A stretch of DNA of 64,000 nucleotides from Phycisphaerales bacterium (GCA_029260435.1 JAJDDG010000005.1:1-64000); one strand, 5' to 3'; positions 145 to 50,560 are shown, numbered from the stretch's first letter. The notes: generated by a model not told the origin, from the letters alone. Numbers and translations are program-made.

Positions 145-582
145 ATGGCGCAAGACGCCGCCCATCTCATCCGCCTGCGCATCGGCGCACCCAAGCAAGA
201 GCTGCTCAAAGCAGCCCGCCCCGAGGCGCGACAGAAAGTCCTCAACTCGGGCTTCTTCCCGATCATGGCTGTCGTCGCGGCCCTCGTGCCGATGGCGCTG
301 CACTTCCTCGCGCAGTGGATGGACCACCGCCTGGAACTGCCGTACTACGCCGCGATGCCAATCCTCCTGCTGCTCTATATCCCGATCCCCATCTCGATCT
401 ACCGCAAACTCATCCACGACGCCTGCCTGAATATCCTCCTCCGCGAGGGCGTCGTCCTCTGCGCATCCTGCAAGACCGACCTCCGCCGCTTCACCTGGGA
501 CACCACCCTCGACCCCGTCTGCCCCGAGTGCAACCACCCCTTCACCCGCGACAAACTCGAAACCCTCGTCGGCGTCCGCTGA
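145..582 (+). CDS. hypothetical membrane protein with a C-terminal zinc ribbon (CASC-x19-CPEC)
   Basis: ORF track. Hydrophobic helices are followed by CxxC...CPEC. The same Cys motif recurs in the ORFs at 15910, 48480 and 50300. Confidence 0.45.
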   Translation: MAQDAAHLIRLRIGAPKQELLKAARPEARQKVLNSGFFPIMAVVAALVPMALHFLAQWMDHRLELPYYAAMPILLLLYIPIPISIYRKLIHDACLNILLREGVVLCASCKTDLRRFTWDTTLDPVCPECNHPFTRDKLETLVGVR

Positions 583-667
583 CGCGCAATTCCGTGCCAC
601 CGATTCGCCTTCAGGTGCCGTGGTACAGGCGCAGCCTGAACCACGATCAATTCATTCCACTTCTCCC

Positions 668-698
668 GTGCCACTGACCGGTCTGCCGGTCAGTGCTC
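668..698. repeat. REP-like palindrome, family 1 (GTGC-CACTGACCGG-loop-CCGGTCAGTG-CTC)
   Basis: Perfect 10-bp stem. Family members also at 1287..1319, 22501..22532, 29150..29185, 41143..41173 and 51152..51183 (rc). Confidence 0.8.
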
Positions 699-726
699 TT
701 CATCTTCTACATTGTCTTCTCTTGCC

Positions 727-749
727 CCCTCTCCCTTCTAGGGAGAGGG
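727..749. repeat. family 4 palindrome (CCCTCTCCC-loop-GGGAGAGGG)
   Basis: Relatives at 1206..1228, 37848..37866 and 51369..51392, usually within 100 nt of a family 1 hairpin. Confidence 0.7.
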
Positions 750-793
750 CCGGGGTGAGGGTTCTTTTTAGCCTGGTGCCTTATCCTCTCCCC

Positions 794-1180
794 ATGTCCA
801 TCCTCGCCCACGGCATAGACCTCGTCGAGATCCCGCGCTTCGCGGAGCTGCTCGATAAACACCCCGAGCGCTTCCTCGACAAGTGCTTCACCGCCGGCGA
901 GCGCGCCTACGCCGATGCCAATCCCAAGCGCCGCCTCGAACACCTCGCCGCCCGCTTCGCCGCAAAGGAAGCCGCGATGAAAGCGCTGGGCACAGGGTGG
1001 GCCGCAGGAGTGACATGGCAGGATGTCGAGGTCGCCCGCGAAGACTCCGGTGCGCCGATCCTCTTGCTGCACAACCTCGCCCAAACCCGCGCTCAAGAAA
1101 TGGGCGCAGCGCGCTGGCTCCTCTCCCTCACCCACACCGAGCACTACGCGCAAGCCTCCGTCATCGCCTGCACGGAGTGA
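794..1180 (+). CDS. acpS: holo-[acyl-carrier-protein] synthase (4'-phosphopantetheinyl transferase)
   Basis: Internal Met of ORF 620..1180. MSILAHGIDLVEIPRF...FAAKEAAMKALGTG aligns along the full length with AcpS. Confidence 0.85.
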   Translation: MSILAHGIDLVEIPRFAELLDKHPERFLDKCFTAGERAYADANPKRRLEHLAARFAAKEAAMKALGTGWAAGVTWQDVEVAREDSGAPILLLHNLAQTRAQEMGAARWLLSLTHTEHYAQASVIACTE

Positions 1181-1437
1181 GCTACACGCAAACGCCAGTC
1201 CCGCCCCTTCTCCCCTTGGGGGAGAAGGTGATCGAACGACCCGTATGGAGAGTGAGATCGGATGAGGGGTCTTCCTCTTTCTCTCCGTGCCACCGATCCG
1301 CCGCGGCGGATCAGTGCTCTTCCGTCCTAACCCGACGGAGTACCTACCCTCCATCCGCAGGACGAATGTCCCTTCTTCCTCACAAAAATGCCACGCGCAC
1401 GCGTGGTAGATAAACAGACTTCTTGTAAAAGCGCGGG

Positions 1438-2979
1438 ATGTTGTTGAGCATGGTGTCTATGACCGCACCCACCGACCCTCCTCCACCCACCGATCCCCCC
1501 GAAGACCAACCGCCCGAACCACGGGAGCAACCCGCGCGCCCGCCCATCAGCGCAGATGATTTCGGCCCCGACAACCCGCCCAACCGCCAGCAGTGCCGCC
1601 AACTCCTTGTAGAAGCAAGCTACGATGCCAAGAAGATCGAGGCGTGGAACGAGTTGAGAAAGCGCATGGGTTGGCAATGGGAACCCGATCTCTCTGACAA
1701 GAAAGATTGCTGGGATGCGTGCGACATAGGATTATCTGTCCTGGGTGAGGGCGCCGAGCGCATTACAGCGGATCTGCAAAAAGCCCATCTAGAAGGGGCG
1801 GATCTAATGCTTTCCAGCCTCAAAGGTGTACATCTGTCTTATGCCAACCTTGAAGGGGCGGTTCTCAGGGACACCACATTTCGCAAGCAACCGAAAACGA
1901 GGCGAATATTCATCCGCGTCTACAGGATGTGCATCAAATACATCCGCAAAGGAAGGTGGCATGCACTGCGGAGAGTACTCTCTCTGCTTTCCCCGGAGTG
2001 GGGCTTCATCGACACGTTCATCTCCGGACGCGCAGGTCTGGGTGATTCGGACACATTCACACCCTCAACCGTCCTCGATAACGTCGATCTCCATGGCAAC
2101 ACAGGCTTCACCGCGCACGGCCAATCCGCCCGCGGCACACGCTTCGACCCCGCCGCCAAAGACCCCTACAGCATCCTCCGCCGCAAATACACCGGCCCGC
2201 TCATGCTTTTCACGCTTGTCTTCCTCGCAATGTTCTTCACGCCCTACCTCATCCGCGCAGGCGCATGGACCGCCGCCTCGCGTGTGCAGACCGCGTTGGT
2301 CGTGGCGGACGACTCCGCTCCAAAGTCATGGCCCGTCCTCCTGCGCGAGTCTTCAAGCGATCTGCAACATGCATCAGCCGAACTCCGCGCCACAGCACAA
2401 AGCCAATCCGATTTGCGCGAGTTGGTATTCAAATGGACAAACCGACTCGAAGCCGCAAACGCGAACATCCAACTCGCCATCGACCGCATCCCGGGTGAGA
2501 CGAAAGTTGCAGTCAATCTGACCAACGCACTGGAAGGCATTAATGCCGAACTCATGTCAACGGTGAGCACGCTGGGTTCAACAGCAGGCGCCACCGAAGC
2601 AAGCCTCCTGCGCGCAAGCGATGCGATCGCCGAACTATCCGAGCGCTTGAATACGCACGCCCAAACAACCAAACGCCAAGTCTGGTCCATCGTCCTCGGC
2701 TTCCGCGCCGGATTCTGGGGGTGGCTCGCCGGCGTCTTATCCATCATCTTCTTGTTCTATAACGTCCTCCGCGCATGCGTCACATGGTGGATGAGCCAGG
2801 TGCGCGACGCCGAAGAGCGCTCCGGGCACCTCCCCGAGATCCAGCAGTACTGGTGGTGTTTCTCCCTCCACCGCTTCGTACTCCAACCGATCTTTATCTT
2901 TGCCGTGTTCTCCTTTGTCTGGCACACGATCCTCTGGTTGAAAGAAGAGGTGGACGTACCCATCCAGTTCCTCCAATAG
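1438..2979 (+). CDS. pentapeptide-repeat protein with a C-terminal multi-pass membrane region
   Basis: ADLQKAHLEGADLMLSSLKGVHLSYANLEGAVLRD pentapeptide repeats and a Pro-rich N-terminus. Several hydrophobic helices lie at the C-terminus. Start uncertain. Confidence 0.4.
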   Translation: MLLSMVSMTAPTDPPPPTDPPEDQPPEPREQPARPPISADDFGPDNPPNRQQCRQLLVEASYDAKKIEAWNELRKRMGWQWEPDLSDKKDCWDACDIGLSVLGEGAERITADLQKAHLEGADLMLSSLKGVHLSYANLEGAVLRDTTFRKQPKTRRIFIRVYRMCIKYIRKGRWHALRRVLSLLSPEWGFIDTFISGRAGLGDSDTFTPSTVLDNVDLHGNTGFTAHGQSARGTRFDPAAKDPYSILRRKYTGPLMLFTLVFLAMFFTPYLIRAGAWTAASRVQTALVVADDSAPKSWPVLLRESSSDLQHASAELRATAQSQSDLRELVFKWTNRLEAANANIQLAIDRIPGETKVAVNLTNALEGINAELMSTVSTLGSTAGATEASLLRASDAIAELSERLNTHAQTTKRQVWSIVLGFRAGFWGWLAGVLSIIFLFYNVLRACVTWWMSQVRDAEERSGHLPEIQQYWWCFSLHRFVLQPIFIFAVFSFVWHTILWLKEEVDVPIQFLQ

Positions 2980-3032
2980 CCCCAATCTCCTTACTTCTCG
3001 CCATCGGCGCACTTTTTACCGATAATGCTCAC

Positions 3033-3956
3033 ATGGCAAAGAAAGGCCCAGCCCTCTACGAACTGATCCAGCAGCAGGCACAGCGGAGCCGACCCACCTC
3101 CGTCGTCACCCGACCCGCTGTCCCCGTCAAACCCGAGCGGGCCGCCCCCCCCTCAGGCCCGCCCACAGGTGCGCCGCCCATCGCGCACCACCCCGCGGCT
3201 TCCAAGCCCGCCCCGTCGCCGCAAACCTATGCTGGCAAAGCAGATACCGCTCCCATGAGCAATCCGCACGACTCGTGGCTCTCCCAGGGCAAGACCTACC
3301 GCATCCCCGCCGGGTACATCGTCATGGCGGTCATCCTGTTGGTGCTCCTCCCGATCGTCAGCTATTCGATCGGGTTCCAGGTCTCCAAAAACCAGCATGC
3401 AGCCGCTCAAACCAAAGAAAGCCTTGACCAGTACTCCAAAATCAACGACCCCACCCTCGCCAATAACCAGGCCCGTTCCGCCACCCTCCCGCAGTCAAAC
3501 CCTGCCAATAACCCCACTACGACCACCAACTCACCCGCCGGTTCTTCGCCTGCAAATACCGGCGCAAACCGCCCTATAGACCTCGCAGCGGGCTCTACTC
3601 CGCAGAATACCCCCGCCGCCGGGCCCATCCAGGGCGTCAAACTGGGCTCGGGCGACCCCGATCGCCGCACCGTCGGGCTGAACTACTACATCCTCGCCTC
3701 CTTCCTCCAGACCGAGGAGGCCGACAGGGCTGTCGATTTCTTTGCCGCAAACGGGGTTGCAGTAATGCGTCAGGCACCGAATAATAGGGGGCTCTGCACC
3801 TTGGTCGCCCTGGAGGGCTTCCCGTCGGGTGATACCCAGAGCCAGCGCGCCCGCGACTACAAGGCAACGCTGCTCAAACTCGGCAGGGAGTACAAAAGGA
3901 ACCACCGGGGCGGCACAGATTTTTCAGACCTGTACCTCAAGAAACATCGCCCGTGA
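3033..3956 (+). CDS. hypothetical proline-rich single-pass membrane protein
   Basis: ATG at 3033 (MAKKGPALYE) inside ORF 2775..3956; TM helix IVMAVILLVLLPIVSY; low-complexity Pro/Thr/Asn linker then a globular C-terminal domain. Confidence 0.45.
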   Translation: MAKKGPALYELIQQQAQRSRPTSVVTRPAVPVKPERAAPPSGPPTGAPPIAHHPAASKPAPSPQTYAGKADTAPMSNPHDSWLSQGKTYRIPAGYIVMAVILLVLLPIVSYSIGFQVSKNQHAAAQTKESLDQYSKINDPTLANNQARSATLPQSNPANNPTTTTNSPAGSSPANTGANRPIDLAAGSTPQNTPAAGPIQGVKLGSGDPDRRTVGLNYYILASFLQTEEADRAVDFFAANGVAVMRQAPNNRGLCTLVALEGFPSGDTQSQRARDYKATLLKLGREYKRNHRGGTDFSDLYLKKHRP

Positions 3957-3993
3957 CCGACCCTCCCCGGCGGCGCGGCAAAGGAACCGAGAC

Positions 3994-4158
3994 ATGAGCC
4001 TCGACTCCAGCCTCAAGACCGCCGGCAATCTCAAGCAGCACCGCAACGTGCTCAAGCGCCACGAGCGCATCGAGCAGCTGAAAGAGACCAAAGACTACGA
4101 TCCGGCGAAGAAACCGGTGCTCGGGCTGCAAAAAACAAGCAGCCGCAAGACCGGCTAA
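3994..4158 (+). CDS. small basic protein (54 aa), function unknown
   Basis: ATG at 3994 preceded by AAGGAA. MSLDSSLKTAGNLKQHRNVLKRHERIEQLKE... is highly basic. It resembles the small basic proteins conserved in Planctomycetota. Confidence 0.5.
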   Translation: MSLDSSLKTAGNLKQHRNVLKRHERIEQLKETKDYDPAKKPVLGLQKTSSRKTG

Positions 4159-4331
4159 TCCCGACATCCACCGACCGCGCGCATGATGGATGCGCCTGTT
4201 GTTTCGTGTGCGCGATCATTGTGCGCACGTCGTCCACCGCCGTGCGCGCATCGCGCGATTAGGCGCGCACCCTGCTACGCTCTACACCGTCAATCGCGCA
4301 CTGCCGCGCGCACCGGAGTCGTGCATACCCC

Positions 4332-5525
4332 ATGGATATCGACGCGCTCATCTCCCAACGCTGCCGCGAGCTGGACACCTCCGGCATCCGCCGAATCTTC
4401 GAGCTCGGCGCCCAGCTCAACGACCCCATCAACCTCTCCATCGGGCAGCCCGATTTCCCCGTGCCCGACGAGATCAAAGCCGCCGCGGTAGACGCGATCA
4501 ATGCGAATCACAACGGGTACACCCTCTCCCAGGGCATCCCGCAGCTCCGCAAACGCTGCGCGAAGCAGCTCCACGACGAACTCGGGTGGCCGGATTCCAT
4601 CGCCGCACCAGGAAAAACCGAGGGCGGCGGCATCGGACTGATAATCACATCCGGCACCTCCGGCGCGCTGTATCTCATGAATATGGCGCTGCTCAGCCCC
4701 GGCGATGAGATCATCATCCCCGACCCGTATTTCGTCGCCTACCCCGCGATGGCGAAGCTCGCCCAGGGTCGGGCGGTGCGCTGCGACACCTACCCTGATT
4801 TCCGGATGACCGCCGAGCGCATCGAGCCGCTCATCACCGAGCGCACCAAGGCGGTGCTGCTCAACTCGCCCGCCAACCCGACCGGCGTGGTGCTCACCCG
4901 CGAAGAATGTGCACAGATTCTTGAGTTGTGCCGCTCGAAGGGTGTGCTGCTCGTTTCCGATGAGATTTATTCGGAGTTCACGTTCGCGGATGCAGCAGCG
5001 GAGACTCCTGTTGGCTTGCGCGCGCCCTCGCCGGCGAGCGTCAGTGGATCGCACGAGGACATCCTGCTGATCCGCGGGTTCGGCAAAAGCTTCGGGTGTA
5101 CCGGGTGGCGGATGGGGTTCGCTGCTGGTCCAGAAGCGCTCATCCGCGAGATGACGAAGCTCCAGCAGTACTCGTATGTCTGTGCGCCGGCGCCGCTCCA
5201 GTACGGGTGCATGAGCGCGTACGACGTGGACATCACAGAACTCGTGGACACCTACCGCGCGCGTCGGGATATGGTCCTCGGCGAGCTGGGCAAGGTGACG
5301 GAAGTCTTCGAGCCGGGCGGGGCGTTTTACTGCTTTGTGAAGGTGCCCGAGAAGCTCGGGATGACCTCGCAGGAGTTCTTCGAGAGGGCGCTGGAGCGGA
5401 ACGTGCTGCTCATCCCGGGCAACGCGTTTTCATCGAAGGACACGCACTTTCGCATCTCGATGGCGGTGGCGGAGGACAAGCTCAAGAGGGGTGTGGCGAT
5501 CCTTGCGGAGCTGCTCGGTGGGTAG
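4332..5525 (+). CDS. pyridoxal-phosphate-dependent aminotransferase, class I/II (aspartate aminotransferase-like)
   Basis: 397-aa ORF with a fold-type I aminotransferase layout; full-length similarity to AspAT-like enzymes ([31 protein letters not shown]). Confidence 0.85.
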
Positions 5526-5656
5526 TTTTATGCGGGGGCGTTCGGCGGATTGAGCCGGGAGCGGGGTGGTGCTACTGTGTGTGGTTCGGAGGCGGGGATT
5601 CGACTCGATTTTTGACGGTGTATCGCCTTATACATGGCGGGAAGGACGCATTAGAG

Positions 5657-6667
5657 ATGGCTATCCGTATCGGGATCAATGGGTTCGGGCGTATCGGTCG
5701 CTTGGTGTACCGCGCGGCGTTTGGTTCAGAGATCGAGGTGGTCGCGGTGAACGACCTCGTTCCCGCGGACAACCTCGCGTACCTCACGCGCTACGACTCG
5801 ACGCACGGGCGATTCGGCTCTTCTTCCAGCGCCACGGAAAACTCCTTCACCATCGACGGCAGGGTCTGCAAGACCTTCGCGGAGCGCGACCCGGCGAACC
5901 TGCCCTGGGGCGATCTGGGCGTGGACTACGTGCTCGAAGCCACCGGCTTGTTCACCAAGTTCGAAGACGCGGGCAAGCACCTCAAGGGCGGCGCGAAGCG
6001 AGTGCTCATCAGCGCTCCGACCAAGACACCCGACGAGGTGCCGACGATCGCGTACAAGGTGAACCACGAGGTGTACGACCCGGCGAAGCACCGGGTTGTT
6101 TCGAATGCGAGCTGCACGACGAACTGTCTTGCGCCGGTCGCGAAGGTGATCAACGACAACTTCGGGCTCGCCGAGGGGTTGATGACGACGATCCACGCGG
6201 CGACCGCGACCCAGCCCACGCAGGACGGGCCGAGCAAGAAGGACTGGCGTGGCGGGCGCAACGCGTACACGAACATCATCCCCGCGAGCACGGGCGCCGC
6301 GAAGGCTGTCGCGCTGTGCATCCCTGCTATGAAGGGCCGGCTGACGGGCATGGCGTTCCGCGTGCCGACCGCGGATGTATCCGCTGTTGATCTCACGTTC
6401 AAGACGGACAAGGCGACGAGCATTAAGGACATCAACGCGGCGATGCAGGCTGCGGCGAACGGCCCGATGGAGGGCGTGCTCGAGTACACCGAGGACAAGG
6501 TTGTGTCGAGTGACTTTATCTCGCATCCGGCGAGCAGCATCTACGATGCGGACGCGGGGATCGAACTGAACGATCACTTCTTCAAGATTATCTCGTGGTA
6601 CGACAACGAGTTCGGGTACGCGAGCCGGTGTATCGACATGCTGCGGTACTTCGCGTCGAAGGACTGA
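5657..6667 (+). CDS. gap: glyceraldehyde-3-phosphate dehydrogenase
   Basis: ATG at 5657. [18 protein letters not shown]-binding motif and the [12 protein letters not shown] active-site Cys motif. Confidence 0.95.
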
Positions 6668-6831
6668 GCCTTTAGAACGTATGAGTTAGGTTTGACGTGT
6701 CCCCTGGCGCGGGATCCCGGACGGCTTGGGGTGCGCGCCAGCGGGTATCATGGGTATGCCCACAGAGCGGATGCGCGGTGCGTGCATCTGCGGGAGTGGG
6801 GGGTGTGTGAGCAAACAAAAGGAGATCTCTC

Positions 6832-8403: not shown

Positions 8404-8465
8404 TCGAGGTCCGGATACCTGGCGTGTCCCGGATCCGTCAGGTGCATAAGTAGTCAGATTTTCAG

Positions 8466-8495
8466 CGGGCCTGCTCTCGGGAGCGGGCCCGTTTT
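8466..8495 (+). terminator. possible rho-independent terminator after the SPFH gene
   Basis: CGGGCC...GGCCCG stem followed by TTTT. Confidence 0.35.
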
Positions 8496-8684
8496 CTGAT
8501 GGGCAGGATTCGGGCGGAACCGCCGGTTGTGTGGTGCGAATAGGGGGTCAGAGCCATCGGGCCGCCCGGATTGTGTCTGGGAAGAAATGCGGCCCTGAGC
8601 AGGATCGTGGGGTTTCTCGGTCCTGAGTGAACGCGCATGGCGCGAAGGAGATCGGCACCAACCGACGAGGCGGGTAGCCGATGA

Positions 8685-15909: not shown

Positions 15910-16392
15910 ATGACCACCGACTCCGCAGCACTCATTGACTGGCTCGCATCGCACGACGCGAAGTGCCCCGCTTGCGATCATGCTCTCCGCGGGATCCCCG
16001 ACCCGATCTGCCCGGAGTGCGGCACGCCGCTCGAACTCGGCGTCCGAGCGCCGAATATCCGCCACTCCGGGTGGGTTGCAGCGCTCATCGCCTGCGCGAT
16101 GGGCTTCGGCTTCGACGCCGTGGTCGTCACCATCGTCTCCTGGGAGATCGTGGTCAAGACGTTCATAGCCCGGGGCTCACAGATCACGACCGACGCCTTG
16201 ATGATCCTCTACACCCTCGTGCCCCTCGCCCTGCTCTGCGTCGGCGCAATCGCGTTGCTCTGGAAACGCCGCCACGCCATCCTCGTCCTCCCGCCGCGCT
16301 GGCAGATATCGTTTGGCGCCGCGGCATTCGTGCTTATCGGAGGCGTGCACGCGGGAGTGGGGGTGTGGCTGATCGCCGTACTGATTATCTGA
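15910..16392 (+). CDS. hypothetical membrane protein with an N-terminal zinc ribbon (CPAC-x13-CPECG)
   Basis: Cys motif, then 4 hydrophobic helices. Same motif family as the ORFs at 145, 48480 and 50300. Confidence 0.5.
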   Translation: MTTDSAALIDWLASHDAKCPACDHALRGIPDPICPECGTPLELGVRAPNIRHSGWVAALIACAMGFGFDAVVVTIVSWEIVVKTFIARGSQITTDALMILYTLVPLALLCVGAIALLWKRRHAILVLPPRWQISFGAAAFVLIGGVHAGVGVWLIAVLII

Positions 16393-19091: not shown

Positions 19092-20258
19092 CTACTTCGA
19101 GGCAAGCTTCTCCACCTTCTTCGCAGACAGCTTGTCGCTCTTAAACACACTCAGCTCCGTCGCCGTGCCGTCGATCTGCGCGCCCGCAGTGTTCGAATGC
19201 ATTTCTTCCCACGCCTCGCGGACAAGCGGCGGCGGGGTGCTGCCCCGGAAATCCAGCTCGAACCCCGCGTCGCGGATCAGGTGGAGCGTCTCGATCGGTG
19301 CGGCCCCCTTCGTGAGCAGGTACCCGTCCACGAACAGCGACGAGCAGGGCTCCAGCGCCAGCGCTTGCATCGAGCGCAGGTGGTGCTCGCGCCCCGCCGC
19401 GATCCGCACCTCCGAGTCCGGATTCGCTAGGCGCATCATGCACAGCACGCGCAGGCAGAACTCGGGTGTCAGCGCCTGTCCTTCACACACCGGATCCGTG
19501 ATCTTCGCGCCGGGGATCGGGATTAGTAGATTCACCGGGATCGACTCCGCCCGCACGGCGCGCAGCTCGAACGCCACATCCAGCAGATCCTCGTGCGATT
19601 CGCCCATGCCAACGATCAAGCCCGTGCATAGCGAAAGCCCGGCGCCCCGCGCCGCGTTGAGTGTGTCCACGCGGTCCTGGTAGGTGTGCGTCGTGCAGAT
19701 CTCGGTGTAATGATCGCGCGATGTGTTGAGGTTGTGGTTCAGGCGATCGAGACCGGCCTCTTTCAGTTGCTGCGCTTTCGCTTCGTCAAGGATGCCACTC
19801 GATAGACATGTCTCCAGCCCGAACCGCTCCTTCACCTCGCGGATGCACGCGCTCATATGCTCGATATCCGCGTCGCTCGGGCCCGTCCCGCTCAGCACCA
19901 TGCAGTACCGAAACGCCCCGGCGTCCTTCGCCCGCTGCGCCTCGGAGATGATCTCGTCGCGCGGCTTGAGCGTGTACGCCTGGATCGGCGCGTCCGAGGT
20001 CTTCGCCTGCCCGCAGTACCCGCAGTCTTCGGGGCACGCACCGTTCTGCACGTTATTCAAAACATGCACCTGCACCCGGTCGCCGTAGAAGTGGCGGCGC
20101 ACGAGCCCCGCCGTGTGGATGAGCGGCAGCAACGGGATCGACGCATCACCGATGATCGTGCGCGCATCATCGCGCGAGATCACCTTGTTCCCGATCCCCG
20201 CACCCGCCCAGGAAGCGAGGCGTTCGTCCAGACCACAAACAGAACTATCTTGAATCAT
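19092..20258 (-). CDS. bioB: biotin synthase with a C-terminal ~50-aa extension
   Basis: CPEDCGYC radical-SAM motif, LNHNLNTS, HTYQDRVDTL and SAGRE motifs. Collinear with E. coli BioB. Confidence 0.85.
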   Translation of the reverse strand: MIQDSSVCGLDERLASWAGAGIGNKVISRDDARTIIGDASIPLLPLIHTAGLVRRHFYGDRVQVHVLNNVQNGACPEDCGYCGQAKTSDAPIQAYTLKPRDEIISEAQRAKDAGAFRYCMVLSGTGPSDADIEHMSACIREVKERFGLETCLSSGILDEAKAQQLKEAGLDRLNHNLNTSRDHYTEICTTHTYQDRVDTLNAARGAGLSLCTGLIVGMGESHEDLLDVAFELRAVRAESIPVNLLIPIPGAKITDPVCEGQALTPEFCLRVLCMMRLANPDSEVRIAAGREHHLRSMQALALEPCSSLFVDGYLLTKGAAPIETLHLIRDAGFELDFRGSTPPPLVREAWEEMHSNTAGAQIDGTATELSVFKSDKLSAKKVEKLASK

Positions 20259-37130: not shown

Positions 37131-37144
37131 CCCGGAGCCTCGTC

Positions 37145-41093: not shown

Positions 41094-41173
41094 GGTGCCA
41101 CGACCTTGGCCCGGAGGGCAAGGCGTGCTTCTCATCTCTTTCGTGCCACTGACCTGTCTTCAGGTCAGTGCTT
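41094..41173. repeat. composite REP-like element (family 2 plus family 1 hairpins)
   Basis: GGTGCCACGACCTTGGCCCGGAGGGCAAGGCGTGCTT then GTGCCACTGACCTGTCTTCAGGTCAGTGCTT. Confidence 0.75.
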
Positions 41174-41236
41174 TTGGTCTCTCCTCTTCCTGATGCCTGA
41201 TCCCCGGTGCCTGGTGCCTTCTTCTTCTTCTTCCAT

Positions 41237-41266
41237 AAAAAAACGCGGCCCCGGGGGAGCCGCGTC
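41237..41266 (-). terminator. rho-independent terminator after the 41299..41844 gene
   Basis: On the minus strand: GCGGCUCCC/GGGGCCGC stem followed by UUUUUUU. Confidence 0.6.
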
Positions 41267-41298
41267 ATCAACTGTTCAGATGATCAAGCCGCCGGGGA

Positions 41299-41844
41299 TT
41301 ACTCCGCGATGTGCTCGAAAATAGACTGCGACCGCAACACCAGCCCGCCCTGGGCCAGCAGGTGGTAGCTCTGGGCATGAACTTCACGCCGAAAACGCTG
41401 GATATCAAGGATCGATGCGCACCGCCCATCCTCGTCCTCCCACTCGTGGATCAGCGCATCGTTGTCCCGCCCAAACTCCAGAAGCTCGTCGTACGTGTCC
41501 CCGTACAGGGTCTCGGGAAGCTGCTCCGTCTGAACGGTGCAGACATATTTGATCTTCTCGCCGAACGCCTGCTCGTGATCACGCTCGCCCGCGCACGGCA
41601 CCGCAGCCACGATCCCGCGATCCGGGATCCCGTCTTCCTGAGCCGAGACCAGTTCCGTGGCGCACAGCCCGTCGTACTGCAGACGCATCAGGTGCATCCC
41701 GGGCATCACCCATGCTTCAAACTCGTAATCGGCGTGCTGGATCCAACGACGATCTTTCACCTGAAACAGCTCGGGATGAAGGGCTCGTCGGTACAAGATA
41801 AGACGGTAAGCCTGGAGGCTGGTTGACTTGACTGGGGCGCTCAT
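41299..41844 (-). CDS. hypothetical protein (DUF2617-like, acidic)
   Basis: 181-aa ORF with good codon usage and a terminator immediately downstream. Confidence 0.5.
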   Translation of the reverse strand: MSAPVKSTSLQAYRLILYRRALHPELFQVKDRRWIQHADYEFEAWVMPGMHLMRLQYDGLCATELVSAQEDGIPDRGIVAAVPCAGERDHEQAFGEKIKYVCTVQTEQLPETLYGDTYDELLEFGRDNDALIHEWEDEDGRCASILDIQRFRREVHAQSYHLLAQGGLVLRSQSIFEHIAE

Positions 41845-41984
41845 GAATCGTCCTTAATACGGTTCGCAGTGGAGGAGAAACGACCTATTCCGTGTCGTCG
41901 CGGGTGGTCAGTGTAGGCAGCGAATCACCGCTTTCAAGAGAGAACCTGTGAACTCACGTACGGTTTCGTGAACTTCTTAGTTCA

Positions 41985-43994: not shown

Positions 43995-44002
43995 GAATCC
44001 AC

Positions 44003-44512
44003 ATGCAGATCCTCTCGATCACAACAAACATCCTCTCGCCACTGCTCGCCGTGGACACCGTCTGGCTCGAAGCCGCGCCCATCGAAGAGACAGCATCAGC
44101 CGTTCACGGGAGCGGAGGGATGGTAGATGGAGTGGGGGGGTGGGGAGTGTTGATCGCCGCGCTCTTCGTGCTGCTCGCCTGCCTCCTCGCTACCCGCTAC
44201 CTGATCCACCGTTCGCGCACCACCGATCTCCAGGCAGCCTTCTCCCGCCTCGCCAGGCGCATGATGCTGCCCCGTCGCGCCCGAAAATCAATCCTCGCCC
44301 TGAGCGAATCCTCGGGCATCCCCGCCGCCGCCATGCTCATCTCCCGAGGCGCATTCACCGCCGCCCTCGCAACCGCCGATACAGACCAGACCAAAGAACC
44401 CCGCGCACGCGCACCGCGCATCATGCTGGGGCTCTTCGCAGAACTCACCCCGCCGCCCCGATCCGGGGGAGCGTGGGGCACCCTCATCAACCGCTTCTCA
44501 ACCCGCACCTGA
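44003..44512 (+). CDS. hypothetical membrane protein
   Basis: ATG 44003, 9 nt after the HEAT gene stop. One TM helix (GVLIAALFVLLACLLA) and a basic C-terminal region. Confidence 0.45.
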   Translation: MQILSITTNILSPLLAVDTVWLEAAPIEETASAVHGSGGMVDGVGGWGVLIAALFVLLACLLATRYLIHRSRTTDLQAAFSRLARRMMLPRRARKSILALSESSGIPAAAMLISRGAFTAALATADTDQTKEPRARAPRIMLGLFAELTPPPRSGGAWGTLINRFSTRT

Positions 44513-44520
44513 GCCAACAC

Positions 44521-44991
44521 ATGCAAGACCCATCCGAAAGACGCGAGCACCGCCGACTGCCCTACAACCGCGAGGTCAAGTTCGCCTGGCTCCACGACGG
44601 CTGCATCGCGTGGCCCGCCCGCCGCATCATCGCCGAAGACATCTCCAAGGGCGGCATCCGCCTGCGAGGCGAGATCATCCCCGAGGGCGCAACCTCCGCG
44701 GTCATCGAACTCAAACGCGCCGACGGCACCCGCGCCGTCATGGGTGTCAATGTCGTCTACACCAAGAACATGATCCACACCGCCGCGCAACTCGAACGCG
44801 AAATGGACGCCGCGAGCAGTGGGGGGGGTGGGAGCAGTGGGAGTGCCGGTGGAGGTGTTGGTGTGGGGGGTGGTCTGGGTGGGGGGGTTGCAGGCGCACG
44901 CTTCTTTGCGCTCTCGGACGAACTCATCGAACGCGAACTCACAGACGCACAAGGCAGAGTCACAGGGCTCGACGCCTACGTCGCCGCGTGA
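44521..44991 (+). CDS. PilZ-domain c-di-GMP receptor with a Gly/Ser-rich linker
   Basis: RREHRRLPY (RxxxR) and EDISKGGIRL (DxSxGG) motifs. Confidence 0.7.
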   Translation: MQDPSERREHRRLPYNREVKFAWLHDGCIAWPARRIIAEDISKGGIRLRGEIIPEGATSAVIELKRADGTRAVMGVNVVYTKNMIHTAAQLEREMDAASSGGGGSSGSAGGGVGVGGGLGGGVAGARFFALSDELIERELTDAQGRVTGLDAYVAA

Positions 44992-45095
44992 TAAGCATAT
45001 CTGAGCGCCTTTGTTTTTCCTTTATAGTCCGCCGCCCAACCGTGGTACTCTGATCGCACGAGGCGAAGCCCATGCCGGGTTGTAAGGAGATAAGC

Positions 45096-45950
45096 ATGAA
45101 GTTGAGTATGATCATCGCTACAGGCCTGATGATGTGTTCTTCGTTCGCTCATGCGCAGCCCTGCGCAAACTATGACGCCTCGCTGGGTACATTCCCCGAG
45201 GATCAGGGTTGGGCATACGAAACAACCGGCGATACAGTCGTTATCACTACCGAGATCCGCGGAGACGCCCTGTACCAGAACTCGATGCCCGGGCATACCT
45301 GCCCCCCATCCGCAACGAATGCCCGGATCGCCGCCTGGCAAATATCCGGCGATTCATTCGAGTTCATTGACGGCATTGTCTTTGCAACAGAATTGAAAAT
45401 CATTGAGTCAGAAATCAATCAAAACTGCTCGCTCGGCTACGCTCGGGCTGGTGTGGCTTTCACCGCGATCGACGTGAACGGGAATGTATTCTGGATCGGT
45501 TTCGGCGAGGAAACAGTCCTACTCTCGAACTCGACCATCGCTCCAGTTGGCCCGGCCGTGAAAGAGATCGACTTCACGACGACCGACGGTTTCCATGTGT
45601 ACCGAGTTGAAGTGTCCGGATCGAGCGCGCTGTTATTCATCGACAACGTACTCTTAGGCGCAATCAACGGATTAGGAAATACAGTGGGAAGCACGAACCG
45701 TGTCTGGATCGGTGACGGTACAGTCTTCGCCAACAGCGAGTTCGAGATCCGCTCCTTCCATGTTGTTGGTCCGAACTGCTGCACGGCCGATGTGAATGGA
45801 GATAGCGTTATAGATGTCAACGACATCACATACGTGCTGTTCCGCCTCGGAAGCACGTGCCCCCCTTGCGACGGCGACGCCAACGAAGACGGCGCGGTCG
45901 ATGTCAACGATCTGACCTTTGTGCTCTTCCGCCTCGGTGATCCGTGTTGA
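45096..45950 (+). CDS. secreted protein with C-terminal dockerin-like repeats
   Basis: AAGGAG RBS and a signal peptide. Two DVNGDSVIDVNDITYVLFRLG / DANEDGAVDVNDLTFVLFRLG repeats. Local GC is markedly lower than in the flanks. Confidence 0.6.
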   Translation: MKLSMIIATGLMMCSSFAHAQPCANYDASLGTFPEDQGWAYETTGDTVVITTEIRGDALYQNSMPGHTCPPSATNARIAAWQISGDSFEFIDGIVFATELKIIESEINQNCSLGYARAGVAFTAIDVNGNVFWIGFGEETVLLSNSTIAPVGPAVKEIDFTTTDGFHVYRVEVSGSSALLFIDNVLLGAINGLGNTVGSTNRVWIGDGTVFANSEFEIRSFHVVGPNCCTADVNGDSVIDVNDITYVLFRLGSTCPPCDGDANEDGAVDVNDLTFVLFRLGDPC

Positions 45951-45977
45951 ACATATCTGTAAACTCAAACCGTGTTC

Positions 45978-46200
45978 ACCATCGCCGGGTGCCACTGGCG
46001 GCTTGTCCGCCAGTGTCCGCCCTGCTCAAGAAAACGTAACGCGCACCGTCACTCGAACACAACGCATCCCCGCCGCACGCCCCTTCTTCCTTTGAAAAAA
46101 GCCATGCGAAGCATGGCATAAAGACAATCTCTCTTGAGGGGGTGCGGGGGATCCCTCCCCCGCATCGCGCATGTCTCGTCCGCCGCAGCACGCACGCCGT
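45978..46200 (+). repeat. ~230-bp structured repeat element, copy B
   Basis: Same three hairpins as copy A, in the same order and orientation. Confidence 0.8.
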
Positions 46201-46220
46201 GTTCTGATTAGCCTGTCTCT

Positions 46221-46784
46221 ATGCCGCCGTCTTCTCCCAAACTCATTTTCCTCATCGGGCTCCGCGGCTCGGGCAAGACCACCCTCGGGCGCATGCTCGC
46301 CGAGCACCTCGGCGCATCGTTCGACGATCTCGACGACCTCGTCCGTGCGCACTTCGGTGTCGATACGATCCGCGAGATCTGGGAGACCGCCGGCGAGCGC
46401 GCATTCCGCGAGCAGGAAGCCGTGTGCATCAAGGACACCATCGCGGCGCACACTACCGCCGGACAGGAATCGATCCCGAGGGTCATCGCGCTCGGCGGCG
46501 GTTCGCCGACCGCCCCCGGAGCAAATAACACTCTCGTAGAGGCGCAGAACGCCGCCGTTTGCGACGTCATCTACCTCGATGCGCCCCCAGCGACGCTCGC
46601 CGCGCGCATCAACGCGTGCGATCCGGACCGACCGAGCCTCACGGGTACCGATCCTGTGCGCGAAGTCACCGCGGTGCATACGCAGAGACACAGCATGTAT
46701 GCGCAGCTCGCGCGCCACTCCGTGGACGCATCGGGCACCCTTGATGCTGTCCTGGCGCGCATCATTAGTGCACTCGAATCATAA
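46221..46784 (+). CDS. aroK: shikimate kinase
   Basis: LIGLRGSGKTTLGRMLAE P-loop plus a DxD shikimate-binding region. Confidence 0.85.
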   Translation: MPPSSPKLIFLIGLRGSGKTTLGRMLAEHLGASFDDLDDLVRAHFGVDTIREIWETAGERAFREQEAVCIKDTIAAHTTAGQESIPRVIALGGGSPTAPGANNTLVEAQNAAVCDVIYLDAPPATLAARINACDPDRPSLTGTDPVREVTAVHTQRHSMYAQLARHSVDASGTLDAVLARIISALES

Positions 46785-46835
46785 TTTTTCAGAGATGAAA
46801 AACGATGGATGGGGTGGTGGTGGAGGAGCGGGGGG

Positions 46836-47228
46836 TTAGGCGGCGAGCGAGTAGCGACCGCTCTCAAGGCGTTCCATGAGCCGCTGCTGATCGCCCGGCA
46901 TCACAAACCGCTTGAACACACACGCCATCCGCACAGGCCCGTTGTCCTCGACATCGTCCTCGTTGATCCACACAACATTCGCGAACGCGTACACCGGGCG
47001 GCGCTGGGAAAACCGCAGCGACTCCTGCCCCGGTAGTGTCAATCGGATCGCGACACTCGTGCCCGGCTCGATCGGGTAATCGAGTTCGAACCGCATCCCG
47101 CCCTCGGAAACGTCGTACGCGTGACCGGACCACTGGAATGTGTCGTTGTCGAGCGGGCGGATATCCACACGCGTGTACATCGAGGGGAGCGTGTAACGCT
47201 GGTGCTGGCGGCGGTTGTTCCCGTACAT
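46836..47228 (-). CDS. PilZ-domain c-di-GMP receptor
   Basis: RRQHQRY and DVSEGGMRFE motifs. The start could also be 47249. Confidence 0.7.
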   Translation of the reverse strand: MYGNNRRQHQRYTLPSMYTRVDIRPLDNDTFQWSGHAYDVSEGGMRFELDYPIEPGTSVAIRLTLPGQESLRFSQRRPVYAFANVVWINEDDVEDNGPVRMACVFKRFVMPGDQQRLMERLESGRYSLAA

Positions 47229-47353
47229 GACTGGCCTCCCTTGGCGCAATTCGGCCCTTGGCTGATAGCGCTATCGGTCGGCGGCGGGGCGGGGTTGAGC
47301 GGGTTGTGTGGTTGCGCCCGGTCGTGGCGCGGGGGAGCCCCGTATGTGGGGGG

Positions 47354-47815
47354 CTACGTTCGGGCGGCGATCAATTCGAGACTGACGCGGTCGATCGGCA
47401 GCCCGAGTTCGGCCTCGATCTGCTGCACCAGTTCGCTCGGGAACGACGCGAGGAGTTTTTTACCCAGGTGATGCGGCACATCGATGATCGAGCCGTCGGG
47501 CGATGTGATGTGCAGATGATCCGAGGTGTCGGCGTCGTAGCGGGTGGGGCCGCTCGCGGTGGGGATGCACCGGATGATGCCGGCTTTGCAGAAGGTTTCG
47601 AGTGTGTTGTAGACGGTGGCGAGCGAGGAGCACGAGCAGTTGCACCCGAGCATGTCGCGCAGTTGCTCTGCGGTGGGGTGGGTGTCCGTTTTCGCGAGGG
47701 CGCGGTAGAGCTCGAGGCGCTGCTTGGTGCAGCGCAGCCCGGCTTCGGCGAATAAAGATCTGATCTGTTGATCGCAATCGACCATCAGTTGGGTCACCTC
47801 GTTTCGATGGAGCAT
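47354..47815 (-). CDS. fur: Fur-family transcriptional regulator
   Basis: LRCTKQRLELYRAL...HPTAEQL...SLATVYNTLETF winged-helix region. HHxxxxC-type metal-site residues. Confidence 0.8.
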   Translation of the reverse strand: MLHRNEVTQLMVDCDQQIRSLFAEAGLRCTKQRLELYRALAKTDTHPTAEQLRDMLGCNCSCSSLATVYNTLETFCKAGIIRCIPTASGPTRYDADTSDHLHITSPDGSIIDVPHHLGKKLLASFPSELVQQIEAELGLPIDRVSLELIAART

Positions 47816-47879
47816 TCTTACAGGGCAATCGGCGCAAGGCGAGCCGATTACTTCGATTCGTTGAGATTGCGAATGAGTC

Positions 47880-48389
47880 TCAAGAAGAAGACGACGCTTC
47901 GGCGGCTTCCGGGGTTCTATGGTCTGACGGCGGCTCGAAGACCATTTTGTAGTGTGGGATCCCGGCTTCCTGGTATTCGTCTTCCATTTTGGACCACCCC
48001 ATGGACTCATAAAATTCGATGGCGCCAACGCGGGCGCTGCACCAGAGGGATTTCAGGGCGAGTTCGCCGAATGCCCGGCGTTCGAGTTCGGCGACGAGTC
48101 GGCGGGCGATGCCCTCGCGCTGGCGCTGGGGATCAACGACCATCTGCATCAGCTTGGCGGTGCCCTTGGTTGGGTAGTCCGGTAACAGGCAGACGCACCC
48201 GATGACCCGCTCACCCGAGGGGTGGTTGACGACGGCGACGATGTGTTCGCAGGCGGCTTCGGAGCCTGGGAAGAGCTTGTCGAGGTCGTCCATGTCGATG
48301 CCGATGGGCTTGAGCAGCACCCGGACGCGCAGCGCAACCTCTTGTGTATAAAGAGGATGCTGCTGATCGATGCGGATGACACGGATCAT
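47880..48389 (-). CDS. GNAT-family N-acetyltransferase
   Basis: QRQREGIARRLVAELERRAFGEL acetyl-CoA-binding motif A. Confidence 0.8.
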   Translation of the reverse strand: MIRVIRIDQQHPLYTQEVALRVRVLLKPIGIDMDDLDKLFPGSEAACEHIVAVVNHPSGERVIGCVCLLPDYPTKGTAKLMQMVVDPQRQREGIARRLVAELERRAFGELALKSLWCSARVGAIEFYESMGWSKMEDEYQEAGIPHYKMVFEPPSDHRTPEAAEASSSS

Positions 48390-48479
48390 GTAGAAGCTCG
48401 CTGCGTATGGCCCGGTGGGACGGTGTATTCAAGGATAGTATCCACTTACCGGGGCGGCGTTCAATCATCGATCCCGGTG

Positions 48480-49295
48480 ATGGGTAAAACTCGTGGAGTT
48501 GGTGGGTGCGACGGGGTTTGGAGACGGCGCGTGGCGAAGCGGCGGGTAGAAGAAGATCGGCGGCTGCTGTGTGAGGGGTGCGGGTACGACCTGACGGGGC
48601 TTGCGGGTGAAGGCGATGGTGGGAGGGCTTGCCCGGAGTGCGGGAGGGGGATCAACGAGTCGAAGCCCGTGCATCGGACGGGGACGGCGTGGCAGCGAAT
48701 CGGCGGGGTGCGCGGGTGGTGGGGATCGCTGGTGGAGTTGGTGCGTGGGAATCAGCAGATGTGGGAAGAGGCGCGGGTGGGATGGCGGACCGACCGGCAT
48801 TTGGCGCTATTCAATGCCGTCGCTGCGGGTGGGCTCGTCGTAGCGGGACTTGTCACCAACGGCATCTTTGGAACCAGTTTCCGAGAGGTAGCCGAGGTAA
48901 CCGTCGTTGTGCTGATTCTCTTCTGGTGGGTGCTCGTTCATCTGATAACGACATCGCTCGTGCTGATAATGATCTGGATTGAGCATGTCGGCATTCGATT
49001 CTTCGGGAAACGACGGGGATGGCGAATTAGCGAGGGGGTTGCGTGGACGGTTGTGGGTCACGCGAGCTATGGGTGGCTGGTGAGCGGGGTTTTGTGCGGC
49101 GTGCTGATGCTCGAGCCGGTTCGGATGAATATGCCGTGGCGAGATATGGAGTTGCCGTTTTTAGCAGGGCATATCGATGGATACCTCATCACGCTGATTG
49201 GCGCGGCGCTGTGGGGGATGATTGTGTTTGAGATTTGTGTGTATCTGGGTGTGCGGAAGATGCGGTATGCGAACCCTCCAACAATCACGCAGTGA
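48480..49295 (+). CDS. zinc-ribbon (CEGC-x18-CPECG) multi-pass membrane protein
   Basis: ATG 48480. N-terminal Cys motif, then ~5 TM helices. The 3' third is duplicated at 49589..49969. Confidence 0.55.
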   Translation: MGKTRGVGGCDGVWRRRVAKRRVEEDRRLLCEGCGYDLTGLAGEGDGGRACPECGRGINESKPVHRTGTAWQRIGGVRGWWGSLVELVRGNQQMWEEARVGWRTDRHLALFNAVAAGGLVVAGLVTNGIFGTSFREVAEVTVVVLILFWWVLVHLITTSLVLIMIWIEHVGIRFFGKRRGWRISEGVAWTVVGHASYGWLVSGVLCGVLMLEPVRMNMPWRDMELPFLAGHIDGYLITLIGAALWGMIVFEICVYLGVRKMRYANPPTITQ

Positions 49296-49585
49296 CACGC
49301 TTCTCGATTCACGATGCGGGGGAAGTGTCCCCCGTTTACCCCCCCTTTATGTTTCGCAATGCGGGGGAAGAATCCCCCGCACCCCCTCAGGAAGAAGAAG
49401 GCATCGGGGATCAGGTGCCGAGCATCAGGAAGAAGCTATTTTTCAGCCACGCTTCGCGTGGCTTTTTTCTGAGGAAGAAGGAGCGGGCGGCGGGGAAGCA
49501 TTTAGTTCGTGTAATGGTGTGTGTTCCGTTTGTTTGAACAGGGCGGGCACTGGCGGACAAGCCGCAGTGGCACCCGGCGTTTCCA
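49296..49585 (-). repeat. ~230-bp structured repeat element, copy C (inverted orientation, internally expanded)
   Basis: The reverse complement aligns with copies A and B. The middle hairpin carries compensatory changes (GCCACGC/GCGTGGC), and the terminal hairpin is partly duplicated. Confidence 0.8.
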
Positions 49586-49588
49586 CGT

Positions 49589-49969
49589 TTGGATCGATGG
49601 CTGTTGCTTGGGTTATTAATCGTGCTGGCCGTTGGTGGTATTACTTTGCTACTGACTGGTGTTGAGCAGAAAGGGATTCGGTTCTTTGGGAACCGGCGCG
49701 GGTGGCGGATTTCGGAGGGTGTGGGATGGACGGTTGTTGGGCACGCGAGCTACGGGTGGCTGGTGAGTGGGGTGCTGATGCTCGAGCCGGTTCGGATGAA
49801 TATGCCGTGGCGAGATATGGAGGTGCCGTTTTTAATGTCGGATATCGATGGGTACCTCATCACGCTGATTGGCGCGGCGCTGTGGGGGATGATTGTGTTT
49901 GAGATTTGTGTGTATCTGGGAGTGCGGAAGATGCGGTATGCGAATCCGCCGGGAGTTGTTTCTTCTTGA
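49589..49969 (+). pseudogene. partial paralog (3' membrane module) of the 48480..49295 gene, with no ATG (TTG/GTG only)
   Basis: The last ~95 aa are ~90% identical to the C-terminus of 48480..49295. The nucleotides are near-identical from GCTGGTGAG onward. Confidence 0.5.
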
Positions 49970-50175
49970 AATGCGATGCGGGGGGCAAGCCCCCCGCATC
50001 CCCCGAAGAGATGCTGTTTATCTGCCACGCTCCCCCACACACAGGCGTGGGGCATTTTTCTGAGGAAGAAGGAGCGGGCACAGGGTATGTGTTGTGTTCA
50101 TGTGATGGACGCGTCACGATTGTTTGAGCAGGCCGGACACTGGCGGACAAGCCGCCAGTGGCACCCGGCGTTGAA
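49970..50175 (-). repeat. ~230-bp structured repeat element, copy D (inverted orientation)
   Basis: The reverse complement aligns with copies A-C. The GGTGCCACTGGCGGCTTGTCCGCCAGTG head is intact. Confidence 0.8.
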
Positions 50176-50299
50176 AGTGAACCAGTATCCGGAATGCCTA
50201 GTTCAATGCGATTTTAAATAAATTGATCCCTAGGACAAACAGGATGAATCCAATGCCCAGACTGATGAGCGATATGAACACCCAGCCGAGGACAATGCC

Positions 50300-50560
50300 C
50301 TATGCAATCGTGAGAACTGGTTGTTCATCAAACTTGCTGCTGGTGTACATCTGAAACGGTCTGGATTCAATCTCGGTGCGTGCCTTTATTCCTGGCACGG
50401 TGATGGGTTGTCCACATCTCAAGCACCTTATGGCTTCGCCTGCCAGATTGATCGAATCCTCATTCTCAAGCCGACAATTTGGACACGAATGCTTAATTGT
50501 AATACGACCGGTCGTGCGGCATCGCTTTAACTGATACGGAATTGGCTTCTGATCTGTCAT
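50300..50560 (-). CDS. small zinc-ribbon protein (CPNC-x15-CLRCG) in a low-GC patch
   Basis: 86 aa from CAT 50558-50560 with GGAG upstream; two CxxC pairs; GC ~47% versus ~66% in the flanks. Confidence 0.45.
   Translation of the reverse strand: MTDQKPIPYQLKRCRTTGRITIKHSCPNCRLENEDSINLAGEAIRCLRCGQPITVPGIKARTEIESRPFQMYTSSKFDEQPVLTIA

Follow-up and report, generated by a model that had tools for sequence, protein, structure and literature searches.

A zinc-ribbon module probably shared by unrelated membrane proteins of Planctomycetota, viewed from a 64-kb stretch of a Phycisphaerales genome

The first 64,000 nucleotides (nt) of a contig from a Phycisphaerales bacterium (GCA_029260435.1, JAJDDG010000005.1:1-64000), which we refer to as the window, contain four open reading frames (ORFs), O1 to O4, that each encode a CxxC...CxxC zinc-ribbon motif. 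The account that we consider likely to hold as a whole is that O2 and O3, and possibly O1, carry a planctomycete ribbon module that is found on otherwise unrelated membrane proteins, that O4 has a ribbon of another type and belongs to an interrupted gene, and that the window is ordinary for its phylum. The initial annotation had read the four ORFs as a single paralogous family undergoing expansion in the lineage, and had taken one of its members to be duplicating at present. That reading is largely refuted by the evidence presented here and we judge it to be very unlikely. The result thus removes a false lead, as neither a local gene-family expansion nor an ongoing ribbon-gene duplication is seen, and it brings into view a sharply defined and very abundant ribbon subtype (up to ~19,000 clusters), which was found all but exclusively in Planctomycetota and whose carriers are nearly always membrane proteins.

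The ribbon class, CGYxLxGL-CPECG, was defined with a 32-position profile (A5) built from the ribbons of the O1, O2, and O3 families and searched against 1.84 billion representative proteins. The profile matched 19,255 protein clusters (50% identity) at E<=1e-3, a number that is to be taken as an upper bound, and 248 clusters at E<=1e-10. Architecture was counted in the best 150 of the 19,255 matches, a sample biased to multi-copy proteins since scores add. The strict motif is present in 145 of these 150 proteins and at least one predicted transmembrane (TM) segment in 138, typically 4-7. The ribbon lies before the first TM segment in 77, among the TM segments in 45, and at the C-terminus in 13, and most of the best matches contain tandem ribbons in 2-4 copies. 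The consensus reads C-x2-C-G(71%)-Y(95%)-[DN]-L(94%)-[R]-G(86%)-L(79%)-x5-C-P-E(94%)-C. Of 284 ribbons, 239 have precisely 12 residues between the knuckles and another 37 have 11. Once the ribbons had been masked, BLAST clustering distributed 151 ribbon proteins over 89 clusters, with O1 and O2 as singletons and O3 grouped solely with another O3-family protein. The module therefore sits on many unrelated membrane modules, and from these comparisons it is promiscuous, in that it is fused to many multi-pass membrane proteins with no other evident resemblance. Sequence searches of the PDB with the ribbon and O3 profiles returned generic ribbons and C2H2 cross-matches only, no dedicated Pfam or NCBIfam model for the subtype surfaced in these searches, and the literature within reach of a search yielded no description of the class. 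The fold itself is known (a zinc ribbon in the neighborhood of Pfam DZR and DUF7129); it is the subtype, its phylum restriction, and its promiscuity that seem to be uncurated.

In the window, O1 (145-582, plus strand) encodes 145 residues with two TM segments and a C-terminal Cys4 ribbon at nt 460-531 (CASC-x16-CPEC). O2 (15910-16392, plus strand) encodes 160 residues with an N-terminal ribbon at nt 15964-16020 (CPAC-x11-CPECG) followed by three TM segments, and O3 (48480-49295, plus strand) encodes 271 residues with an N-terminal ribbon at nt 48570-48641 (CEGCGYDLTGL-x9-CPECG) and four TM segments. O4 (50300-50560, minus strand) encodes 86 residues with a ribbon at nt 50414-50485 (CPNC-x16-CLRCGQPITVP) and ends in a TAG at 50300-50302. 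ORF calls and motif positions thus confirm the four genes proposed in the initial annotation, together with its statement that three of them have membrane modules with the ribbon at either end. Its spacer counts of 19, 13, 18, and 15 were wrong, as the true inter-knuckle spacers of O1 to O4 are 16, 11, 16, and 16, and the second half-site that it took to be conserved in all four is a CPEC common to O1, O2, and O3, from which O4 differs. A six-frame search of the window finds only 11 strings of the form CxxC-x8-30-CxxC, of which four are O1 to O4, one lies in a 1091-residue ORF taken as UvrA, and six are in ORFs not judged to be coding. The GC content at third codon positions (GC3) is 0.88 for O1, 0.84 for O2, and 0.69 for O3, which is a coding-type pattern in a genome of 63% GC, while O4 has 48% GC, a flat codon-position profile, and no GC3 signal. 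Pfam and NCBIfam scans of O1 to O4, and of a partial duplicate of O3 that we call copy B, gave generic zinc-ribbon matches below threshold only. Against DZR (PF12773; gathering threshold 27.3 bits) the scores were 13.0 for O1, 15.8 for O2, 14.1 for O3, and 12.1 for O4, and against DZR_2 (PF18912; gathering threshold 27 bits) they were 23.5 for O2 and 13.8 for O1.

Weak and generic matches of this kind, all below curated cutoffs, invite the explanation that the four CxxC pairs are convergent, independent knuckles that co-occur by chance. CPxCG is the commonest zinc knuckle, the A5 profile cross-matches C2H2 fingers, L32, and rubredoxins through its CPECG knuckle, and an FmdB-type CPECG ribbon used as a control attains 58% in hhalign. 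Membership was assessed with a hidden Markov model (HMM) made from 282 foreign ribbons of unrelated proteins, with the families of the window excluded, which was scanned against the 1058 six-frame ORFs of the window. O2 scored 35.0 bits (E 4e-10), O3 25.8 bits (E 3e-7), and O1 11.3 bits (E 0.011), compared with at most 5.5 bits for the remaining 1055 ORFs and less than 3.7 bits for O4. When aligned by hhalign to A7, the largest independent ribbon-TM family, the O3 family reached 98.6%, the O2 family 96.7%, and the O1 family 91.3%, compared with 58% for the FmdB-type control, 0.3% for the UvrA-like ORF, and 30.7% over 13 columns for O4. Against each of the two independent ribbon-TM families of greatest size, the match of O3 was high (98.6% and 98.4%) and limited to the ribbon. 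The agreement of O2 and O3 with independent families (96.7-98.6%) includes the inter-knuckle residues and a P-[IV]-x-x-S that follows the second knuckle, and the inter-knuckle pattern, searched as DNA, is matched almost only by Planctomycetota among the stretches listed. The inter-knuckle signature and the CPECG-x-P segment can be read in O3 as CGYDLTGL...CPECGRG and in O2 as CDHALRGI...CPECGTP. O1 retains D-L-R and CPEC alone, and O4 retains none of the class signature. The 12-residue spacer of the class is not kept in the window, as O2 has 11 residues and O1 and O3 have 16 by way of 4-residue insertions; a 16-residue spacer also occurs in other O3-family members. Judged by these scores, O2 and O3 are clear members of the class, O1 is a divergent member of marginal standing, and O4 is not a member. 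The shared ribbon with conserved flanks (L-x-G-[LI] and CPECG-x-P) that the initial annotation had implied thus stands for O2 and O3, is probable but marginal for O1, and fails for O4. Chance convergence is a quite unlikely explanation of the whole set; for O2 and O3 the profile comparisons have already refuted it, while it holds for O4 and may hold for O1. The AlphaFold2 (AF2) model of O1, with a predicted local distance difference test (pLDDT) of 80 and beta bridges at residues 105/112/125/132, supports a ribbon-like double hairpin.

Shared class membership does not make O1, O2, and O3 paralogues. By hhalign, the three family alignments match one another at 93% (A1/A2), 88% (A1/A3), and 85% (A2/A3), over spans of 28-33 columns that correspond to the ribbon alone, while O4 reaches 9%. 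The homology thus spans no more than about 30 residues and does not extend to the membrane modules, which are unrelated. Each of the three genes has syntenic orthologues in other metagenome contigs or in Phycisphaerae metagenome-assembled genomes (MAGs), where it keeps a neighborhood of its own. The O1 orthologue lies between an FmdB-type gene and acpS (contig L134), the O2 orthologue follows two prepilin-type N_methyl genes, and the O3 orthologue precedes gcpE and is transcribed divergently from a GNAT-Fur-PilZ unit. The homologues found for O1 (five, 69-100% identical) and O2 (three), with the sequence of the window counted in both sets, are close relatives throughout, with identities of 62-100% across the two. 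No neighbor is common to all four ORFs in the window, where the neighbors are AcpS, fructosamine kinase/MiaB, and GNAT/Fur/GcpE. Because the module recurs on many unrelated membrane proteins, O1, O2, and O3 are best regarded as linked by a shared mobile domain and not by paralogy. What speaks for a paralogous family is the CPEC half-site in three of the four ORFs, the tandem repeat of part of O3, and a full-length tandem pair of O3-family genes in another MAG (L138). These are outweighed by the short span of homology, the different type of the O4 ribbon, the synteny of each gene elsewhere, a duplicate that lacks the ribbon and has a synonymous divergence (dS) of 0.5-1.2, and a gene density like that near ribbon genes in other Planctomycetota.

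The distribution of the module was surveyed by scanning one genome per species, 185,579 species in all, with a degenerate DNA pattern for CGY-x-L-x-G-L...CPEC. Planctomycetota account for 119 of the 120 genome stretches listed, mainly Phycisphaerae with some Planctomycetales, Isosphaeraceae, and Tepidisphaerales. Other high-GC phyla are presumably far better represented in the genome collection than Planctomycetota and yet are absent among the 120 stretches listed, so codon bias does not explain the restriction to one phylum. The single listed match from outside the phylum (L043) comes from a MAG labeled Alphaproteobacteria (contig JANQQE010000030.1). It consists of two overlapping frames, each with TM segments and a C-terminal CGYxLTxL...CPECG ribbon; mis-binning of the contig, horizontal transfer, and a frameshift within one gene are possible explanations. 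The density of ribbon genes was then compared. In 826 kb examined around seed ribbon genes, extra ribbon ORFs occur at 2.3 (strict motif) to 2.6 (loose motif) per 64 kb, a rate conditioned on an adjoining seed gene, and the window holds 2 by the strict motif and 3 by the loose one. Since this count is close to the flank density of other Planctomycetota, the density in the window is ordinary for the phylum. Of the lineage-specific expansion put forward in the initial annotation, what survives is an over-representation of the module across Planctomycetota as a whole; an excess specific to this genome or to the window does not, as the flank densities are alike.

The proposed duplication has a basis in a tandem repeat that includes part of O3. 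Repeat unit A (48964-49565, plus strand) comprises the 3' 330 nt of O3 and ~270 nt downstream, with a terminator-like hairpin at 49445-49463, and unit B (49647-50155, plus strand) is its tandem copy with a terminator-like hairpin of its own at 50033-50052. Unit B is 76% identical to unit A in its first part and 93% identical in the last 187 nt of the coding part, with a 12-nt in-frame deletion. The ORF within it, copy B (49589-49969, plus strand), encodes 126 residues from a TTG start and lacks both the ribbon and the first TM segment. Its product is 79% identical to residues 160-271 of O3, has one new N-terminal TM helix, and keeps GIRFFGxRRGWR, HASYGW, FExxVYxGxRKMRYAN, and every conserved C-terminal motif. 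Between O3 and copy B, dS is 0.52 and the ratio of nonsynonymous to synonymous divergence (dN/dS) is 0.29 overall, with values of 1.2 and 0.17 in the 5' part and 0.21 and 0.5 in the 3' part. The duplication is therefore old and copy B is under purifying selection, while the low dS at the 3' end suggests that this end has been homogenized, probably by gene conversion. A partial tandem repeat of O3 thus exists as the initial annotation had noticed, but the copy has no ribbon and is not recent. In L138, another Phycisphaerae MAG, the gene directly downstream of the O3 homologue encodes a further full-length paralogue of the family that also has a ribbon (4712-5440; hhalign 99.6%), so O3-family tandem pairs recur, and copy B may be the remnant of a similar full-length pair. 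In the Logan assembly of this sample the contig ends within the repeat, which is what a true repeat would lead one to expect. An exact-sequence look-up of O3, copy B, O4, and the ORF at 50774-51085 in the protein collection gave no match, which for O3 fits with the Logan contig stopping inside the repeat. Other hairpins are found here as well. GC-rich hairpins, CGGGGGAAGTGTCCCCCG and variants (49313-49381 and 49977-50000), stand immediately behind the stops of both ORFs, two behind that of O3 and one behind that of copy B, and a second conserved hairpin, CACTGGCGGACAAGCCGCCAGTG, is located at 49547-49565 and 50136-50158.

Copy B, the low-GC patch with O4, and the ORF at 50774-51085 all lie in a lineage-specific insertion of 2.1 kb (49296-51422) between O3 and gcpE. 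The insertion is absent from L003, L004, and L139, in which only 12-55 nt separate the O3 orthologue from gcpE downstream. The ORF at 50774-51085 encodes 103 residues with no Pfam match and is followed by a terminator-like hairpin at 51110-51128. A blastn search of 50150-51420 against phages and plasmids gave no match, and a scan of viral contigs for O4 relatives found none. O4 had been described as a stand-alone ribbon in a low-GC patch. The low GC content is borne out, but the frame of O4 continues beyond its TAG for 33 sense codons, GIVLGWVFISLISLGIGFILFVLGINLFKIALN (50201-50299, minus strand), before a second stop (together spanning 50198-50302), and GIVLGWVFISLISLGIGFILFVLGINLFKIALN is a clean predicted TM helix with a Kyte-Doolittle hydropathy of 2.72. 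Seven metagenome relatives share the CGQPITVP knuckle with O4. Setting aside any ORF cut short immediately behind the ribbon leaves six relatives, and five of these have a ribbon, a linker, and a TM helix. Given the in-frame helix after the TAG and these uninterrupted relatives, O4 is therefore best read as the front of an interrupted ribbon-linker-TM gene, with GIVLGWVFISLISLGIGFILFVLGINLFKIALN as its probable original C-terminus. Possible explanations are that O4 is a pseudogene or that the stop arose from an error in sequencing. The ribbon sequence, SCPNC...G..IRCLRCGQPITVP, resembles the MJ0042/ZitP/GltJ type; its score of 15.3 bits (E 0.012) against TIGR02098 is below the curated cutoff of 20.9 and represents a resemblance, not demonstrated membership. 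The best sequence match in the PDB is the zinc ribbon (ZnR) of GltJ/AgmX, 7zok_A, with an E value of 0.033.

O3 belongs to a family of ~40 detectable hypothetical proteins, with phmmer E values of 1e-15 to 1e-43 to 38 members, and all members that carry a source name are from Phycisphaerae. No member has a Pfam match, and no Pfam or PDB relative of the O3 membrane module was found. Nearly invariant motifs of the family, all of them present in O3, are LLCExCGY, CPECG, S-x4-R-x-G-x2-WQ, IExxGIRFF, R, HASxGW, FE, and RxMRYAN. The closest relative of O3 (L139, 2383-3192) is recorded as 191 residues from an internal codon; the full ORF starts at a TTG 234 nt upstream and encodes 269 residues with a ribbon, so database entries of the family can be N-terminally truncated. 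In the window, PilZ, Fur (47354-47785), and GNAT genes are divergent from O3, with an intergenic region at 48390-48479, and gcpE lies 2.1 kb downstream. A functional link between O3 and IspG/gcpE was considered and not adopted, as the two genes adjoin in only three of seven other loci and are 2.1 kb apart in the window. The divergent arrangement with a Fur-family gene is found in the window and in five of seven other loci, which leads to a different idea of what the ribbons do: they could be metal or redox switches in which Cys4 oxidation or zinc loss alters the membrane module, with O3 in the regulon of the Fur-family regulator. Zinc ribbons can reportedly act in this way, with Ruc as a known redox switch. 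The regulator in the window scores best with the Irr and PerR models, and O3 has conserved residues (E168, H194, and E251) near the cytoplasmic leaflet. An imperfect palindrome, TAGT-N4-ACTA, is present between the O3 gene and the divergent GNAT-Fur-PilZ unit in L003 (~5832-5850, GATAGTGTTGACTAGC), in L138 (~3916-3940, inverted), and in degenerate form in the window (48433-48448, GATAGTATCCACTTAC), and is a candidate operator. Nevertheless, gene adjacency is the sole link between O3 and the regulator, the Fur homologue is below every curated cutoff, the palindrome has 8 specified bases only and is imperfect in the window, and no metal or redox genes are tied to O1 or O2, so we consider a switch function unlikely for the ribbons. 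With members in many Phycisphaerae MAGs, a confident predicted fold that has no solved relative, and a frequent Fur-family partner, the O3 family is a candidate for functional study.

Counts of lysine and arginine in the loops, read by the positive-inside rule, predict a cytoplasmic location for the ribbon ends and the conserved basic loops of O1, O2, and O3, in line with the topology suggested in the initial annotation. Cys4-Zn sites are expected in this reducing compartment. Two ribbons of bacterial membrane proteins have been studied experimentally. According to PMC11135422, the N-terminal zinc ribbon of ZitP from Caulobacter binds PopZ, and that of GltJ from Myxococcus works as a switch, with MglB and the linker of GltJ itself as its binding partners. 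Beyond ZitP and GltJ, we found no other experimentally characterized N-terminal ribbon on a bacterial membrane protein. With these two proteins as precedent, we infer that the ribbons of the window most likely serve as zinc-stabilized docking or structural knobs. The two knuckles of each ribbon would chelate one Zn2+ on the cytoplasmic side, the conserved G-Y-x-L-x-G-L hairpin would form a small rigid surface, and this surface would dock a cytoplasmic partner or the cytoplasmic loops of the protein itself. In the AF2 model of O3 (pLDDT 89; predicted template modeling score, pTM, 0.86), the ribbon, the SLPExRxGxPWQ segment, and the loops GIRFFGxRRGWR and RxMRYAN come out as a single rigid unit with high confidence. 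The high pTM points to packing of the ribbon against the conserved cytoplasmic loops, and a role as an integral component of the cytoplasmic face, structural or regulatory, is more likely for the O3 ribbon than one as a free tether.

Many zinc ribbons bind nucleic acids, and a very basic helix of O3, VWRRRVAKRRVEEDRR, comes just before its ribbon, so the ribbons might be thought to tether DNA or RNA to the membrane. The surface residues of the ribbon itself, G-Y-x-L-x-G-L, are not basic, the ribbons occur in tandem on membrane proteins, both characterized membrane-anchored ZnRs make protein-protein contacts, and nucleic-acid-related neighbors are lacking in the window, which leaves this role extremely improbable. 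A bolder extension of the docking role is that the ribbon is a Planctomycetota-specific cytoplasmic "address tag" that has been shuffled onto thousands of membrane proteins and is read by one phylum-specific partner. This extension is doubtful, but were it true, O1, O2, and O3 would be three clients of one undiscovered system, with membrane-organization, division, or quality-control machinery as possible partners in a phylum with atypical cell biology. If the ribbons do share a ligand, a large unexplored interaction network would exist at the cytoplasmic membrane of a poorly understood phylum.

Several points weigh against our account of a planctomycete module on unrelated membrane proteins in an ordinary window. 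The 19,255 clusters are an upper bound because the CPECG half of the profile also matches C2H2 fingers, which make up 2 of the 150 best matches. The proportion of 119 in 120 rests on the stretches listed, whose scanning order is not known, and the rate of 2.3-2.6 extra ribbon ORFs per 64 kb, being conditioned on an adjoining seed ribbon gene, may overestimate the genome-wide rate. O1 stands barely above the FmdB-type control in its claim to membership (91.3% as compared with 58% by hhalign). For O3, the pTM is the sole basis of the rigid packing of the ribbon, and for O4, the TAG could be an error of assembly or sequencing.

The window also holds features apart from O1 to O4. An FmdB/Zn_ribbon_8-type zinc-ribbon gene is cut by the window edge so that only its 3' end remains (1-141, plus strand), and its stop lies 3 nt before the ATG of O1. 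In its frame-1 translation, 1-141 corresponds to the Lys/Ser-rich tail encoded by the Zn_ribbon_8 gene located before the O1 orthologue in L134 (FmdB-type gene at 335-694), where the pair of FmdB-type gene and O1, followed by acpS, is also conserved. It is a fifth ribbon gene, which was not visible to the initial annotation. Farther along, a 513-residue protein (1438-2979, plus strand) has N-terminal pentapeptide repeats, several C-terminal TM helices, and a GC3 of 0.70, lower than that of its neighbors. ARAGORN calls a 91-nt tRNA-Arg(CCT) at 20151-20241 (minus strand) inside a 400-residue ORF of high GC3; an Rfam scan of the whole window at gathering thresholds found nothing, including no tRNA at 20151-20241, and the call is therefore probably a false positive. 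GC skew is very strong. It lies at about -0.15 to -0.30 between 20 and 44 kb and at +0.3 to +0.45 between 51 and 64 kb, and the cumulative skew is lowest near 46-47 kb. The skew probably tracks the coding strand, and its magnitude is unusual.

Comparison with known systems helps to place these proteins. Pfam DZR (PF12773) and DUF7129 (PF23455) describe the same Cys4 two-knuckle ribbon as the window class, and multi-ribbon proteins of the class match them in 66 of 70 and 41 of 70 cases, respectively. O1, O2, and O3 have single ribbons and match DZR or DZR_2 weakly, at 13-23.5 bits relative to cutoffs of 27-27.3, and as seen here the DZR and DUF7129 models do not single out the G-Y-x-L-x-G-L residues, the 12-residue spacer, or the restriction to Planctomycetota. 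FmdB/Zn_ribbon_8 proteins (PF09723, TIGR02605) share a CxxC...CPECG ribbon with the class, but they are soluble, have other inter-knuckle residues, and reach the class at 58% only by hhalign. ZitP and GltJ (MJ0042, TIGR02098) are like the window proteins in having a Cys4 cytoplasmic ribbon on a membrane protein, the side of the membrane being predicted in the case of the window. The ribbons of O1, O2, and O3 are of a different sequence class, the CPECG type. O4 comes nearer to ZitP and GltJ, with the same ribbon-linker-TM layout if its TAG is read through, and differs from them in scoring below the curated cutoff, in having no GYF domain, and in being interrupted by a stop. A further comparison is that of O3 with its own family, represented by KF869_12385 and IT432_16055. 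O3 is a full-length member with like motifs and a like neighborhood, and it is set apart by a 4-residue inter-knuckle insertion and, among the relatives examined, by two features that occur in the window only, namely a partial tandem copy without the ribbon and a downstream insertion of 2.1 kb.

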